NCBI GenBank assembly: GCA_964291285.2
Contig: OZ219786.1
Coordinates: 928,001 to 992,000, forward strand
Length of the DNA stretch: 64,000 nt
Source of the DNA: Alphaproteobacteria bacterium
Lineage (GTDB): Bacteria; Pseudomonadota; Alphaproteobacteria; Bin95
Direction of reading: 5' to 3'
Numbering within the stretch: the stretch's first letter is position 1; each line of letters begins with the position of its first letter. A program made the position numbers and the translations under genes. The notes below the pieces were generated by a model that saw only the letters and a program-made list of their open reading frames with translations, was not told the origin of the DNA and did no database searches. Below, piece after piece: positions 6,169 through 58,504 of the stretch.

Positions 6169-6249
6169 GCCTTTGCCGGGCTTCCCCCGCCGCCGCGCTG
6201 GATGCGGCATCCGTTCAGGTTGAAACGGCTTCGCCCGTGAAGCCTCAAT

Positions 6250-6352
6250 CGTCACCCCGGACGGCGCGTCAGCAACGATCCGGGGTCCATCTCCCGGCCT
6301 TTCCGCCAGATCGAAACGGTTGTGGATGGGGCCCGGACGGTCCCGGGCGTCG
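6250..6352 (+). repeat. REP/BIME-like palindromic element, family 1 copy 1
   Basis: CGTCACCCCGG...CCGGGGTCCAT...GATGGGGCCCGG; related copy at 44541-44646. Confidence 0.7.
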
Positions 6353-6357
6353 GGCGG

Positions 6358-43895: not shown

Positions 43896-44084
43896 ATGGC
43901 GGCCGGAAAATCCGACCCGGTGATTGCCGAACTCCGGGCCGTCAAGGACCCCTGCGCGGCGGAATTCGACTTCGATATCGACGCGATTTGCGACCATCTG
44001 GTTTCTGCAGAGAAAACTTCCGGACAGACTTAGGTCCCTTATCTTCCGCGCCGTGTCCTGGTGGAAGCGCCGCACGGCGAGTGA
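43896..44084 (+). pseudogene. Small antitoxin-like protein with a probable premature TAG at 44031
   Basis: MAAGKSDPVIAELRAVKD...FDFDIDAI...SGQT[TAG]VPYLPRR resembles the small DP(I/V)xxE(L/V)R...SGRxYV proteins often found beside PIN toxins (recalled, not searched). Confidence 0.4.
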
Positions 44085-44251
44085 TCGTGTCCGGGACGGC
44101 CCCGGTGAAGTCGAACAAAGCGTGGCCTTGACCGGCATTTGGCGGGGTTTCCCGATCGGTATTTGGCGCGGCCGGTGACCGGGGCCGGGGCGGGAGGCAG
44201 TCCCCCTCCAAAGTCGCAAAGAATGAAAAAAATCTAATGATTTTGACTTTT

Positions 44252-44293
44252 GTTCGTGTTTTGATCTTGACATCTGGCGGATTGTGATATGAT
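44252..44293 (+). promoter_or_regulatory. Promoter-like motif of element copy A with a degenerate LexA box
   Basis: GTTC-N7-GATC (44252-44266) abutting TTGACA (44267) and TG-A-TATGAT (44285-44293). Confidence 0.5.
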
Positions 44294-44525
44294 GGTCCCC
44301 GGGGAAGCGGATCCGGAGCCGCGTCCCCGGGTGCCGCGCGGCCGAGCGGCGCTATTTCTGAAAACCCGTGAGAAGCCGACGGGAGACGTGCGCCCTCTGC
44401 CTCGCGCGCGCAATCAGGCGCGCGAACCGCGCCGGCGCCGACACGCGCCCGGGCAGGCGCGGGCGCCCGCGCAGGATACGCGCGGAAAAGGGACCCGCTC
44501 CCGGTCGGAGCAAGGAGGAACGATG
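44281..44525 (+). repeat. Conserved structured leader, copy A (candidate ncRNA or cis element)
   Basis: Collinear conserved blocks shared with 56481-56746(-), including 38 identical nt at 44407-44444. Confidence 0.85.
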
Positions 44526-44540
44526 ACCGCAAAGCGCAAC

Positions 44541-44646
44541 CGTCACCCCGGCCGGAGCGGAGCGGAGAGCCGGGGTCCATCCTCCGCCCTCTCTACCGGG
44601 CTGCAACGGTCAGGGATGGGCCCCGGCTCCGGGGCCGGGGCGACGG
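44541..44646 (+). repeat. REP/BIME-like palindromic element, family 1 copy 2
   Basis: CGTCACCCCGG...CCGGGGTCCAT...GATGGGCCCCGG...CCGGGGCGACGG. Confidence 0.72.
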
Positions 44647-44731
44647 TGAACGCAAGACACAGAAGGAGACCGAAGAGTGGATGACTTCATGCCGGAAACG
44701 GCTACAGCATATAAACCCTGCGCATGGAAAA

Positions 44732-44801
44732 CATGACACTTCATGACATGTTGCGCAGTGTCCTGCGGGGCCCGCATGACAAAACATGACATCTCATGAC
44801 A
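44732..44801 (+). repeat. CATGACA direct-repeat array (2+3 copies, 10-bp period)
   Basis: CATGACA at 44732, 44742, 44775, 44785, 44795. Confidence 0.9.
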
Positions 44802-44849
44802 TCGGCCGGGGAGGCGCGGCGCGTCCGCATTGCGGTCCTGCCGCTTTGT

Positions 44850-45881
44850 TCAGCGGTCGTCGGGCCAGGTGTCGGCGAGGCGGTAGCCGCGCGGCCAGGG
44901 GTCGTCGGGATCGACCATGATCTGGCGCGTGCCGGTGATCCAGGCGCGGCCGGCGAGCGAGGGCAGGATGGCCGGGCGGCCGCCCACCGTGGTCTCGCCC
45001 TCGATCAGGCAGTCGAAACGGGAATCGATCAGCGAGACGCCCACAAAGCTGTCACCCGCGCGGAGAACGCCCCTGGCGTGCAGCGTGGCGAGCCGGGCGG
45101 AGCAGCCGGTGCCGCAGGGCGAGCGGTCGATCTTGCCGGGGCGGATGGCGACCGCATTGCGGCCGTGAGGGATGCCGCCGCGGGTTTCGAGCGGGGCGGC
45201 GAACTGGCAGAAGGAGAGGTGCGCCCAGTCCGCCTGCTCGGGATGGCGGAAGCCGATCTGTTCGTTTGCGGCGCTGACGATGCGCATGCCGGTGACGGCG
45301 AGGTCGCGCGCCTCGTCGGGCCGGAGCACGAAGCCGAGCGCGGCCGCGTCCACGATGGCGTAGCTGTCGCCGCCATAGGCGGTATCGACCCGGAGCGTGC
45401 CGAAGCCCTCGACTTCGAGCGGCGCGTCGAGCCGGTCGGCGAAGGACGGGACATTGCGGATGCGCACCCGCTCGGCCTTGCCGTCCCGGCAGGCGGCGAC
45501 CGCCTCGACCAGCCCGCCCGGCGCCTCCAGCAGGAAGCGGGTCTCCGGTTCCTCCATCGCCACGATGCCGGTTTCCAGAGCCACGGTCGCGACGCACATC
45601 GCGTTGGAGCCGGACATGGGCGGCGTGTCCTCCGGTTCCATGACGATGAAGCCCATCGCCGCGGCCGGGTCCTTTGCCGGCACGAGCAGGTTCACATGGC
45701 GGAAAACGCCGCCGCGCGGCTCGTTCAGCACCACGTCGCGCAGCCAGCCGTCCCGCTCGATGAAGTTCCTCTGCTCCCAGAGCGTCGCCCCCGGCGGCGG
45801 CGCCACCCCGCCCACGATCACGTCCCCCACCTCGCCCTCGGCATGGCAGCCGACGACATGGATCAGCTGCGTCGTCCGCAT
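44850..45881 (-). CDS. Proline racemase family protein (Ser/Cys catalytic pair)
   Basis: [31 protein letters not shown]. Confidence 0.9.
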
Positions 45882-55421: not shown

Positions 55422-55451
55422 TATGTGCCGGGGTCCATGGACCGGCGCATA
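55422..55451. terminator. Hairpin between convergent genes
   Basis: TATGTGCC-GG-GGTCCATGGACC-GGCGCATA fold-back with no strong U tract. Confidence 0.35.
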
Positions 55452-55470
55452 GGGGCCACTCCACGCGCCG

Positions 55471-55497
55471 TGTCATGGAATGTCATGATCTGTCATG
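55471..55497 (-). repeat. CATGACA direct-repeat array (3 copies, 10-bp period)
   Basis: Plus strand TGTCATG at 55471, 55481, 55491; overlaps the stop codon of the TerS-like ORF. Confidence 0.9.
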
Positions 55498-56483
55498 TCC
55501 GGGGGCGAATTCGACGCTGTCGAACCGGTCGCCGCCCGCCGGTCCGGGTCGCCGGTCCAGTCCTCTTCCTCATCGCCGTCGCCGTCCCGGTCGCCGCTCC
55601 AGTCGTTGTCTTCGTCTTCGCCCCGCTCTTCCCGTTCGAGGCGGCTCTGCCTGCGCTCCTCGACCTGCTCCGGGGCCCAGGGGTCGTAGATGTCGTCGTA
55701 TCCGTTGCGGCGCTGGTAGAGCCAGTCATGTTCGGCGCCGTCGGCCCGGTCGTCGTCGGTGCTGTCCTCGTGGCCGGGCGCGGCGGCGGCGGCCCACGGG
55801 CAGTCTTCGTAGGTCTCCTCCGGCGGGTCGTCGGCCGGCGGCAGGTCGTTTGCCGGCGCGGGCGGGGGGCCGAAGCTCACGGGCAGGCGGGAGCGCTCCT
55901 CGACGGCCGCGGCGAGCCTGCGGGCGGCCTCCTCATGCGCGGCCCCGTCGAAGCCCTCCTGCGCCTCCATCTCCTCCCGTCGCTCGCGGTGGCGGGCGAG
56001 CGCTCGTTCGGCCCGGGCATGGCCGCTGCGCACGGCGTCTGCGAGCGGTCCGGGTTCGGTGCCGGTCTCCTGCGCCTCGCCCGCTTCGATCTCGCCGAAC
56101 TCGTCCTCGTGCGGCAGCGGCCAGAGGCGGGCCCGGTTCGCGCCGGCCGGACTGACAAGCCCGGCGATCTCGGCCTGGAAGCGCAGCACCCGGAGCATCA
56201 TGTAAGCCGAGCCGCTGGCGACGGCGGCGTCCCAGGCCTGCTCCGAGCGGGCGAGCAGGATGCGGGCCTCGTCGCGTTCGGTGCGCTTCCAGGACAGGCG
56301 GATGCGGCGCACGCGCTCGACGATCCAGGGCCGCTCCAGCAGGGCGCATCCGGTCTGTCGTGCGGAGCGCTCGGCATAGCCGGCCTGCCTTGCAGCGTCT
56401 GCGGCATTGCCGGAGGCGGTGTAGTGGCGGCAGAAGGCTTCCTGGCGGGTGGAAAGCGCGACGGCGGGGTCGATGACGGGCAT
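55473..56483 (-). CDS. Orphan terminase-small-subunit-like HTH protein with a long acidic low-complexity tail
   Basis: AAAGGAG RBS; LSTRQEAFCRHYTASGNAADAARQAGYAERSARQTGCALL matches the TerS N-terminal HTH pattern; D/E-rich C-terminal part; no other phage genes nearby. Confidence 0.75.
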   Translation of the reverse strand: MPVIDPAVALSTRQEAFCRHYTASGNAADAARQAGYAERSARQTGCALLERPWIVERVRRIRLSWKRTERDEARILLARSEQAWDAAVASGSAYMMLRVLRFQAEIAGLVSPAGANRARLWPLPHEDEFGEIEAGEAQETGTEPGPLADAVRSGHARAERALARHRERREEMEAQEGFDGAAHEEAARRLAAAVEERSRLPVSFGPPPAPANDLPPADDPPEETYEDCPWAAAAAPGHEDSTDDDRADGAEHDWLYQRRNGYDDIYDPWAPEQVEERRQSRLEREERGEDEDNDWSGDRDGDGDEEEDWTGDPDRRAATGSTASNSPPDMTDHDIP

Positions 56484-56760
56484 GGTGTGCGGCTCCTTTC
56501 GTTCCGCTGGCGTTCGACAGGCAGGCCCGGCGGGGAGCGACCCTTATTCGCGCGTATCCTGCGCGCGCCTGTGCCGGCGCGGGCGGGTGTCGGCGCCGGC
56601 GCGGTTCGCGCGCCTGATTGCGCGGGCGCGAGGCGGGCGCAGGGCACACCTCGCCTGTCGGCTGAATCGGGGTCGTTCCGCACCGGGCCGGCGCGGGCGG
56701 GAAGCGGCTCCGGATGCCTCCTCCCTCGCACCCATCATACCACAATTTCTGAAAATGCAA
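56481..56760 (-). repeat. Conserved structured leader plus promoter-like motif, copy B
   Basis: TTGCAT-N15-TATGAT, then the same blocks as 44281-44525; 38-nt core at 56587-56624. Confidence 0.85.
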
Positions 56761-56869
56761 GCCCCATTATAAGAATTATTACATAAACTTCAGGAACGAC
56801 TTGTTATATGCCTTCATCACCCGCTCTCGCCTCCGGGCAGAGGCGCCGGTGCCTCGTGCGGCCGCAGCC

Positions 56870-57067
56870 TCACTGCCGGAGGTCCCGGCCCGCCCTCCGG
56901 CCGCCGGCGCAGGCGTCTTCCGTCAACAGGCGAGCGTCGCGGCGGTCGCGGTAAATCGCCCCGCCGATGAGTTGCCTATCCCTGAAATCGCGCCGGAGTC
57001 TCCTGTCCTGCGTGTAGAGGAGCCGGACGCCGGTGGCGCGGGCGAGCGCGACGACATGCGGGTCACG
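56870..57067 (-). pseudogene. C-terminal fragment of a PIN-like domain protein
   Basis: Frame not in the ORF list: RDPHVVALARATGVRLLYTQDRRLRRDF...; no in-frame start; truncated where the AT-rich sequence begins. Confidence 0.5.
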
Positions 57068-57295
57068 TGAGTATATATATTTGGAGCATCCTCTGATCCA
57101 TATGGATCGACTGTTTGTCGACGACCAGCCATCGGCTTTGCCTCATTTCGTCGCCTTGGGCCCCAATCCGAGGTGACGGTTGGGATCTACAGACGAGACT
57201 GTTTTAATTCGAACGGCTCATGCTCTAAATTGCGTATCACGTATTCCAAATATCATTAATGATAGTCATGGAGAAAATATTGCCTCAGACCAAAG

Positions 57296-57580
57296 TCAGA
57301 AAACAAAAAAATATCGCCTTCTTCTTCCTTCACCCTGTGCATTTACTGTAGGGTATGCATGATGTTTATCTTGAAAATTCCTGATAAAAATATGCTCCAT
57401 CAGCGTTGGAATTGTATTTCTCCAAGGACGAACAAGACATACAATCATTCGGACACCTGCCAAATATCCATGAACTTTCATAGGAAGTTTGTAACCATAT
57501 AAAACTAGGTAATTTCTTCGCATATCGTCGAGAAACCGATTGCCGAAATCGTTTGTCTTGCCGATGTAAACCACTTCCAT
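57296..57580 (-). CDS. Low-GC GIY-YIG-like nuclease fragment or small ORF
   Basis: VVYIGKTNDFGNRF...MEHIFIRNF...HHAYPTVN; AT-rich islet; first GIY strand missing or frameshifted. Confidence 0.45.
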   Translation of the reverse strand: MEVVYIGKTNDFGNRFLDDMRRNYLVLYGYKLPMKVHGYLAGVRMIVCLVRPWRNTIPTLMEHIFIRNFQDKHHAYPTVNAQGEGRRRRYFFVF

Positions 57581-57706
57581 TATCTCGCCGCAAGAAATCG
57601 AGGTAGTCCACTGGCCGCCCTATCCTTTTGTTCCCCAGCAGAGAACTGCCAACATCGTTTGTGCCTCATTTATATAGCGCAACTCCCGATGACCTGCTTT
57701 CGTGGA

Positions 57707-58504
57707 CTATCCAGCATCCTCATTGTCTACGGCCCACGGCGGCGGGCGCTTTTCGTTGAAGGCGTCTATGCCGGCGCGGGCGGCGGGGGCTCGGAGGAGG
57801 GCGGCTATGGTGTGCGCGGCGTCGTCCAGGGTTTCGTTCACCGGGCGGTCGGAGGCGGAGATGACCAGGCGCTTGGCCTGCGCGACGGCCCCGGGCTCCG
57901 AGCGGCGGACCTGATCGAGCACCCCGGCCAGCGCCGAATCGGCGTCCTCCCGGCTGGCCGCGAGAATGTGGGCGAGGCCGTCGCGGAGCGCGTCGCGGCC
58001 GTCCAGTATGGTGCCGGTCGCGACCAGCCGCCGGGTCCAGCCCTCGCCCATGCGCCGCACGATGTGGGGGATGACCTGGGCCGGGATGAAGCCGGAGCGC
58101 GCCTCGGGCAGGCCGATCTTCGCGTCCTCGGTGACGATCACGACATCGGAGCAGCAGGCCATGCCGAGGCCGCCGCCCGTGCAGGCGCCCTCGACCACCG
58201 CGATGACGGCCTGCGGCAGCGCGTTCAGCAACTCCAGAACATGGCCCATCCTGCGATAGACGGGAAAGAGCGGGTCCGGATCCGCGGCCGGCGGGACGTC
58301 TCCCAGCATCGACATGTCGCCGCCGGCCGAGAACTGCCCGCCCTCGCCCCGCAGCACGACGGCGCGCGCGTCCGACGCCCCGGCTTCCCGAAAGGCGGCC
58401 AGCAGCGCGTCCATTGTCTCCTGGGTCAGCGCGTTGCGGCGCCCGGGCCGCGTCAGCCGGACATGAAGGGCGATTCCCTCCCGCTCGACCCGGACCGGGC
58501 TCAC
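57707..58504 (-). CDS. Enoyl-CoA hydratase/isomerase family protein
   Basis: RRNALT, FSAGGD, GACTGGG, GLPEARSG. Confidence 0.9.
   Translation of the reverse strand: MSPVRVEREGIALHVRLTRPGRRNALTQETMDALLAAFREAGASDARAVVLRGEGGQFSAGGDMSMLGDVPPAADPDPLFPVYRRMGHVLELLNALPQAVIAVVEGACTGGGLGMACCSDVVIVTEDAKIGLPEARSGFIPAQVIPHIVRRMGEGWTRRLVATGTILDGRDALRDGLAHILAASREDADSALAGVLDQVRRSEPGAVAQAKRLVISASDRPVNETLDDAAHTIAALLRAPAARAGIDAFNEKRPPPWAVDNEDAG

Follow-up and report, generated by a model that had tools for sequence, protein, structure and literature searches.

A GC-rich leader with two covarying hairpins forms the 5' module of a dispersed, roughly 100-copy element in a sponge-symbiont alphaproteobacterium

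A GC-rich leader sequence occurs twice in the 64,000-nucleotide (nt) stretch of DNA analysed here (the window: positions 928,001 to 992,000, forward strand, of contig OZ219786.1, assembly GCA_964291285.2, from an alphaproteobacterium of the lineage Bin95), and is the 5' module of a dispersed element with about 100 copies in the genome of this sponge symbiont (6.1 Mb in 5 contigs, 68% GC, 100% complete). In window coordinates, copy A lies at 44281-44525 on the plus strand and copy B, located by a 15-base search of the window, at 56746-56527 on the minus strand; aligned over 236 columns, the two share 175 identities (74%) with 24 gap positions (E 2e-37). A first-pass annotation, made from the letters of the window alone, had drawn attention to these two copies and to the frame-breaking indels that separate them, and both are as described (gaps of 1, 2, 5 and 6 nt; the reading frame is not kept over the whole leader). 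The finding is real but was mis-scoped: not two copies but about 97 are detected in the genome, and the leader is one module of a larger repeat rather than a stand-alone RNA gene.

Element copy A is a derivative of about 0.62 kb (44222-44846, plus strand, as are all of its modules), recognised by similarity to other genomic copies, with limits at ~44181-44223 on the left and 44834-44846 on the right (the left-end alignment of 16 A-type copies starts at ...ATGAAAAAAATCTAATGA). Its promoter-like site (44267-44293) comprises TTGACA (44267-44272), a 15-nt spacer, TG (44285-86) and TATGAT (44288-44293). Hairpin P1 (44297-44331; CCCCGGGGAAGCGG / CCGCGTCCCCGGG) would lie no more than a few nt from the putative 5' end of the transcript. 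Hairpin P2 (GCCGC-GCGGCCGA-GCGGC, then the U-rich CTATTTCT) follows at 44333-44359. Farther on, a candidate 7-base-pair (bp) helix spans 44388-44423 (GTGCGCC, 44388-44394; GGCGCGC, 44417-44423; the conserved block CAATCAGG, 44411-44418) and would place an invariant CAAUCA in its loop. The hairpins that the first-pass annotation had drawn occupy 44402-44484: CGCGCGCG-CAATCAGG-CGCGCG (~44402-44425), a variable hairpin, and CGCGC-AGGATAC-GCGCG (44468-44484). A ribosome-binding site (RBS), AAGGAGG, and an ATG at 44523 head a 53-codon open reading frame (ORF; 44510-44684 with the RBS), which starts like the second protein family described below (MTA...), then diverges, and is a remnant of an acidic protein; it has no Pfam match. 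Most of this ORF is taken up by a nested, separate repeat of ~110-130 bp (44527-44658), which also occurs on its own, for example at window 6235-6353, and has at least 10 further sites in the genome. The 3' module (44723-44802) consists of CATGAC repeats starting at 44723, 44732 and 44742, and again at 44775, 44785 and 44795.

Element copy B (55450-56830, minus strand throughout) is full-length, ~1.35 kb in an alignment of 10 full copies. Its promoter-like site (56734-56760) has TTGCAT (56760-56755), a 15-nt spacer and TATGAT (56739-56734). The leader of B (56484-56732; covariance model match 56732-56521, 110.4 bits) contains P1 (~56726-56698), P2 (56696-56678; CCGCGCC/GGTGCGG), GTGTGCC (56649-56643), CAATCAGG (56620-56613) and GGCGCGC (56614-56608), and, just upstream of the RBS, a box GAAC-N7-GAAC (56501-56515). 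The ORF (55476-56483) specifies a 336-amino-acid (aa) protein with a small-terminase-like helix-turn-helix domain, further helices and an acidic disordered tail, and it ends (...MTDHDIP) inside three phased CATGAC repeats (55470-55497). Copy B is intact; copy A, which resembles a miniature inverted-repeat transposable element (MITE), is a member of the same family that has decayed and has internal deletions.

The 97 leader copies in the genome are 62-100% identical (blastn), and 102 of the 138 sites that match the anchor motif CAATCRGGYR fall into one family cluster. The leader is the 5' module of a dispersed element 0.35-1.4 kb long, in which an A/T-rich promoter-like stretch (~70 bp), the GC-rich leader (~230 nt), the RBS with a small ORF, and the CATGAC repeats follow one another in this order. 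The ORF is frequently deleted; the repeats number 2-6 and are phased at 10-11 bp. Downstream of 83 of the 97 leader copies, at least two phased CATGAY repeats are found on the same strand at a distance of 57-1160 nt; at 8 further copies they are 1.4-4.5 kb away, several of these being interrupted by an insertion sequence (IS), and 6 copies have none within 8 kb. A near-full terminase-like ORF is present in 10 copies, and a second ORF family (~200-234 aa, acidic, unrelated to the terminase-like protein, with no Pfam or PHROG match) in about 7. Besides copy B, nine copies specify the terminase-like protein at 83-97% aa identity; at the DNA level, 9 other genomic copies are 81-93% identical to B over ~56803-55465 (~1.35 kb). 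Within the genus, 14 of the 16 other genomes have the leader too; it is missing from all 8 genomes from two sister genera and from all 16 genomes from other families. Nothing in the titles and abstract openings of the literature that was found describes an element of this kind, and to that extent the family is undescribed. At the right ends of some of the 82 elements compared, a further shared module directly follows the last CATGAC repeat (two such modules read ...TGGAGTGGGCCCC... and ...CCACGGTGGAGAGGACGGTCCCGCCGCC...; examples lie at G000:C2:1255600-1256700 and G000:C1:691000-691250), and therefore the genome holds mosaics of several repeat families.

The repeat is also visible in sequencing runs. 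In three DNA runs, the listed contigs break off at the borders of the two elements; over window 43967-44900 and 55642-57042 the summed depth is 23-59 times that of the neighbouring DNA. These breaks and depths fit a collapsed repeat of the kind that breaks short-read assemblies.

Conservation of the leader as structure was assessed with a covariance model built from 17 T-type leaders and five hand-set helices; 97 model matches (from the window, the rest of the genome and its relatives) were aligned and the 96 distinct rows analysed. Over these, 82.5% of cells are paired (sliding the 3' partners along the alignment lowers this to 34-50%), and both sides of a pair have changed in 269 cells, as against 116 in shuffles (none of 500 reaches the observed value) and 35-94 in slid registers. 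Both-side changes are found at all 13 model pairs of P1 (for example AU 29 / GC 22 and CG 22 / GC 21), of whose cells 82% are paired, and at 8 of 11 P1 pairs on a plain MAFFT alignment. In P2, 4 of 6 model pairs show them (UA 29 / CG 28 at one), and a strong hairpin stands at the place of P2 in every subtype, its sequence differing; it is followed by a U-rich run in the A subtype and by an A-run in the others. Compensatory change above the controls is confined to P1 and P2. For these two hairpins the comparative support for structure is good, and the simplest reading of that structure is RNA that would act in cis.

Other attempts to read structure from the family were discarded. RNAalifold on MAFFT alignments, which are not structure-aware, gave 5 pairs on a 57-sequence alignment and was replaced by the alignment to the covariance model; on the 17 T-type sequences it returned invariant long-range CG pairings and nothing else, and was uninformative. 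All-against-all mutual information was dominated by the signal of the subtypes.

The hairpins proposed in the first-pass annotation, around CAATCAG and AGGATAC, can be drawn in both copies and behave differently from P1 and P2. Their cells are paired at 88.9%, compared with 89.0% after shuffling (412 of 500 shuffles reach the observed value); 2 cells are changed on both sides, compared with 1.4 in shuffles; and sliding the 3' partner by +2 columns still pairs 88.6%, other even-register slides being equally good. (What this means is that these hairpins are (CG)n pairings that any register satisfies.) The suggestion of a conserved structure is thus upheld for parts of the leader other than those to which it had been attached. 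As regards loop sequence, the CAATCAGG block is near-invariant as claimed (the largest minor-allele count at any of its 8 positions is 5 among 136 unique family sequences); the supposedly invariant GATAC loop is not, since the family has GATAC, GAAAC, CATTAC and GATTG.

The 7-bp pairing GUGCGCC:GGCGCGC is of a third kind. It consists of standard pairs in 95-100% of the 136 unique sequences and its variation is G-U wobble exclusively; on the model-guided alignment 98.1% of its cells are paired, with zero both-side changes. At its 14 positions C>T differences number 93 and G>A differences 9, as against 131 and 149 in the flanking block, and this C>T excess, peculiar to the helix, therefore points to pairing of the plus strand as RNA. 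The central part of the leader also offers mutually exclusive pairings. A search of the whole window against Rfam gave no match at the gathering score; at E values up to 1, region B had none, and the sole match, to mir-2320, fell within the nested repeat of copy A and scored 19 bits against a gathering score of 90.

That the leader is non-coding, as the first-pass annotation held, agrees with the indels and with variation in the family, in which no consistent codon-like pattern was found. Among five gap-free runs, one varies with period 3, one shows the reverse and three show neither. The periodic one is the 15-nt run GGGAGAGGTGCGCCC (alignment columns 203-217; window 44381-44395), where minor alleles per site number 34.0, 8.0 and 5.6 by codon phase over the 96 leaders. 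In the CAATCAG block (read as CGC AAT CAG ...) third positions are the least variable, at 1.6 as against 6.5 and 7.9. All three frames are open through the whole leader in 47-64 of 91 sequences, and open frames therefore carry no information here; in 28 of 136 sequences the distance between two conserved blocks breaks the frame. A coding function of the leader was rejected on the grounds of indels, inconsistent periodicity and off-frame spacing. The narrower proposal of a leader peptide or upstream ORF (the frame K-P-T-G-E/D-V-R...RNQAREPRRRRH, which is open in A and is also the frame of the ATG at 44523) can appeal to the GGGAGAGGTGCGCCC run, which the non-coding verdict leaves unexplained, and to a 6-nt indel between A and B that keeps the frame over ~25 codons. 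It is scarcely credible, however, in view of the aperiodic runs and the CGC AAT CAG block, the off-frame spacings, and the lack of a start codon with an RBS after the putative transcript start.

The region upstream of the leader exists in three sequence variants among the copies, all with two hexamers at fixed spacing. In A and B the spacer is 15 nt and TG precedes TATGAT, the extended -10 form; in one subtype the spacer is 17 nt. From these hexamer-keeping variants and the RBS downstream we infer a promoter. Farther along, about 215 nt after the promoter-like site of B, stands the perfect GAAC-N7-GAAC box, a candidate LexA operator that fits the LexA-box consensus of alphaproteobacteria. Among B-type copies its half-sites are kept and its spacer varies (GCCAGCG / CGAAGCG); copy A has no such box.

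The same box is found with more distant relatives of the B ORF. Relatives of this gene come only from metagenome-assembled genomes that bear the title Alphaproteobacteria or Rhodospirillaceae and of which one takes its name from the sponge genus Spongia; they include 13 distant homologues at 44-57% identity, several per genome. GAAC-N7-GAAC stands in the same place, perfect in 9 of the 13 and matching at 7 of 8 half-site bases in 3; upstream sequence is missing at one locus (the box lies just upstream of position 1501, or of the gene start, at L185, L186, L187, L190, L192, L195, L196, L199 and L201). This suggests SOS (LexA) control of a multi-copy, terminase-like gene family. The distant homologues have a leader of ~40 nt, consisting of promoter hexamers similar to those of B, the box and then the RBS, and in 4 of the 13 the gene is followed by three CATGAC repeats of period 10. 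The short boxed leader of the distant relatives, together with retention of the box in B, implies that the long leader was added within the genus. The GC-rich leader would thus be a genus-specific insertion that separates a promoter from an SOS-type operator with its RBS, both of them older than the leader. Upstream of terminase-like genes in another genome there is also a perfect hairpin repeat, GTAGGGGAGGGTTTCAAACCCTCCCCTAC (L185:1150-1300, L190, L195, L196), which looks like a REP-type unit (repetitive extragenic palindrome).

The assignment of the B ORF is consistent across methods. Pfam Terminase_2 matches residues 11-72 (42.7 bits, cut-off 26.1; E 1.1e-10), the PHROG match is to terminase small subunit (E 8.6e-12), and a profile search of the PDB returns only the DNA-binding domain of SF6/SPP1-like small terminases (2cmp, 4zc3, 3zqp; E 1.8e-6 to 1.1e-5). 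An AlphaFold2 model made with 15 relatives is all-helical, confident over ~residues 11-110, with long helices beyond the DNA-binding domain and a disordered acidic tail (mean pLDDT 65.9, pTM 0.35); its top fold matches are small terminases (4zc3: TM 0.85, rmsd 1.6 A, 56 columns). The gene is under purifying selection: over 45 pairs, nonsynonymous divergence (pN) is 0.038 and synonymous divergence (pS) 0.128, giving pN/pS of ~0.30. Its neighbours are metabolic genes, with no large terminase adjacent.

With moderate confidence, these comparisons suggest that a selfish multi-copy element, as yet undescribed, has the leader as its transcribed, non-coding 5' module, and that the leader most likely acts in cis, as RNA. 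P1 would fold at the very 5' end of the message with the GC-rich P2 directly after it, and the two may be determinants of transcript stability and of early elongation (by pausing or attenuation). The central CG-rich part would be a less certain platform on which GUGCGCC:GGCGCGC displays CAAUCA, perhaps for a protein or RNA partner, and the long leader as a whole would overlay an SOS-type control. The function of the leader, like the movement of the element, is something that we infer.

A number of observations weigh against this account. The consensus promoter scan calls no promoter at A or B, because it demands a spacer of 16-18 nt and the hexamers, with TG-extended TATGAT, are 15 nt apart. 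The only RNA run is one sponge metatranscriptome in contig form, in which the depth of the element is ~19 times that of neighbouring bins, a ratio that does not exceed the 23-59 times of the DNA runs and hence copy number; contigs give no transcript starts, ends or strand. The RBS is unpaired with a probability of 0.55, compared with 0.54 behind shuffled leaders (29 copies), and RBS occlusion was rejected as a mechanism on that account. The thermodynamic signal is modest to weak, with a fold z-score of -1.06 for A (equalled or bettered by 37 of 200 dinucleotide shuffles) and of -2.85 for B (by 1 of 200). In P1, G-U pairs number 44 and A-C pairs 54 on the MAFFT alignment, and with no G-U excess P1 alone therefore identifies neither the strand nor the molecule. 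A model-guided alignment is biased toward the structure supplied to it, and the copies are related, so that counts of changed cells are not counts of independent events. Finally, the leader diverges by 0.107 and synonymous sites by 0.128 among the 10 full copies, and much of the similarity of leaders is therefore due to recent copying and not to selection.

Several of these points (near-synonymous divergence, the absent G-U excess and the low z-score of A), along with the freely sliding CG-rich hairpins, would also be expected if the hairpins were REP-like palindromes at the level of DNA, accumulated in the repeat and conserved-looking through recent copying, with RNA having no role beyond the promoter and start site. 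Recombination of modules fits as well: two copies with pS of 0.009 differ by 0.072 in their leaders. This is a real possibility, if not the likely one. It is opposed by P1 and P2, whose pairing is kept through both-side changes across subtypes and species, by the wobble-only pattern of the 7-bp helix, which is strand-specific, and by the core of the leader, which is retained across genomes whose ORFs differ or are lost.

At the other extreme, the leader might be a regulatory RNA in the strict sense: a riboregulator sensing a ligand or protein, an anti-termination RNA of the two-hairpin type that directly follows phage promoters, or (P1, P2 and U-run of the A subtype) the source of a short trans-acting RNA. 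Two covarying hairpins directly after a promoter-like site, the U-rich run after the A-subtype P2, the invariant CAAUCAGG presented between conserved strands and the mutually exclusive central pairings would all suit such a role. It is nevertheless unlikely, given that the leader matches no Rfam family at any threshold, that the terminator scan makes no call at P2 of A, that P2 is followed by an A-run in other subtypes, that gating of the RBS is not seen, and that a discrete transcript is not in evidence from the contig-form RNA run.

Insertion can be read best at copy B, which is flanked by genes for an HpcH-type aldolase and an enoyl-CoA hydratase. In 5 of 10 readable loci of relatives these genes are convergent, with a short gap and no element; in 3 of the 5 (those with intergenic sequence matching the window) a distance of 6 nt separates the two stop codons. 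The filled junction is shared with one relative, and at three loci one of the probes was missing. What fills the site is the element plus ~0.9 kb of A/T-rich DNA; the last hydratase codons are replaced and no clean target duplication can be read. This adjoining A/T-rich DNA (window 56831-57731) contains two short ORFs with no Pfam match. Copy A lies at a rearranged junction; synteny is rearranged in relatives, and no junction can be read there. In the aligned copies no terminal inverted repeats are seen (the left end is A/T-rich and the right end consists of direct CATGAC repeats), nor is a target duplication, in these copies or at the B locus; repeats of the kind that a MITE or other IS derivative shares with a parent transposase-bearing IS are accordingly missing.

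The genome has an abundant IS of 2014 bp, whose 599-aa protein, which we take from its sequence to be an IS4/IS5-type transposase, is encoded by 44 full copies at 99.8-100% protein identity (sites include L113:1-365, that is G000:C4:199242-199606, and G000:C3:941311-943330). Its ends (CCCGACTTCCGC..., terminal repeat CCCGACTTCCGCAACTCGG) are unrelated to the element. It duplicates a YTAR target, and ~10 copies counted by eye lie inside elements, mostly at AAYTAGGG. As mobiliser of the element this IS was rejected; it merely targets YTAR, which occurs in the leader motif AAYTAGGG, and this is why several leader copies are cut at one place.

The first-pass annotation had also suggested a nicking or origin structure. 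An ssDNA (single-stranded DNA) structure serving movement, whether a nicking, origin or end-recognition hairpin like those of IS200/IS605 ends or REP, would account for an element that has conserved hairpins and many copies and yet no recognisable transposase among the Pfam and PHROG matches of its ORFs. It is very unlikely, lacking a partner enzyme: the Y1 HUH transposase (PF01797; IS200/RAYT) has no match in this genome, and of the 17 genomes of the genus 1 has a match. Moreover, the hairpins are internal, after the promoter-like site and not at the ends, the left end of the element is A/T-rich and poorly conserved, and distant relatives are multi-copy with no long leader.

A more speculative account, which we regard as improbable, takes the elements to be dispersed terS-pac hitch-hikers that spread by biased transduction and not by transposition. 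After DNA damage, the terminase-like protein would bind the CATGAC repeats, both those of its own gene and those of the ~100 deleted copies, and would recruit a large terminase from an infecting phage. Every copy would then become a packaging start, and the genus-specific structured leader would be an RNA switch that times packaging. If so, this would be a mobile element without a recombinase of its own. A resident helper for such a terminase role was considered and dismissed: the three large terminase (TerL) families that were searched for (Terminase_6N, TerL_ATPase and Terminase_3) gave no match in the genome, and a single, weak capsid match scored 28.9 bits.

If the leader is, as we favour, a transcribed cis-acting module of a selfish element, the genomes of these sponge symbionts would harbour a family of small elements, undescribed so far, whose copies each supply a promoter, a start site and a structured leader at ~100 places per genome and converge on the 3' ends of ordinary genes. 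Copies may pass in annotation for small-RNA genes, leaders or short ORFs. For the biology of mobile elements, the point of interest is that the only conserved protein is a predicted terminase-like DNA binder and not a transposase; for work on RNA structure, the leader offers ~100 natural variants per genome on which hypotheses can be tested.

Structured 5' untranslated regions (UTRs), such as 5'-terminal stem-loops and the two-hairpin put-type RNAs of phages, stabilise or attenuate messages. The leader may be likened to put-type RNAs in that two covarying hairpins immediately follow a promoter-like site in the context of a phage-derived gene; unlike these and other 5' UTR RNAs, it has no match to an Rfam sequence or model and resides in a ~100-copy repeat. 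With REP/REPIN-RAYT systems and the ends of IS200/IS605 the element shares GC-rich palindromic hairpins in many copies; on the other hand there is no Y1 transposase, the unit is far larger, with a promoter-like site and an ORF, and the hairpins are internal.

In pac phages of the SPP1/SF6 type the pac site lies in or beside the terS gene. The element protein has a homologous N-terminal DNA-binding domain, and the element gene likewise ends in phased short repeats. In contrast to terS, however, this gene is solitary and multi-copy, with metabolic neighbours and none of the three TerL families in the genome, and the C-terminal part of its product is acidic and disordered, with no beta-barrel predicted.

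A further comparison is with the promoter-bearing dispersed intergenic repeats, namely the Correia elements of Neisseria and mosaics of the ERIC/BIME/RIME type. Like these, the element is hundreds of bp long, present in tens to hundreds of copies, intergenic and modular or mosaic, with hairpins, promoter-like hexamers and many internally deleted copies. It differs from them in that no terminal inverted repeats or target duplication are seen, the 3' end being a phased direct CATGAC repeat, and in that the full-length element has an RBS of its own and a conserved ORF under purifying selection.

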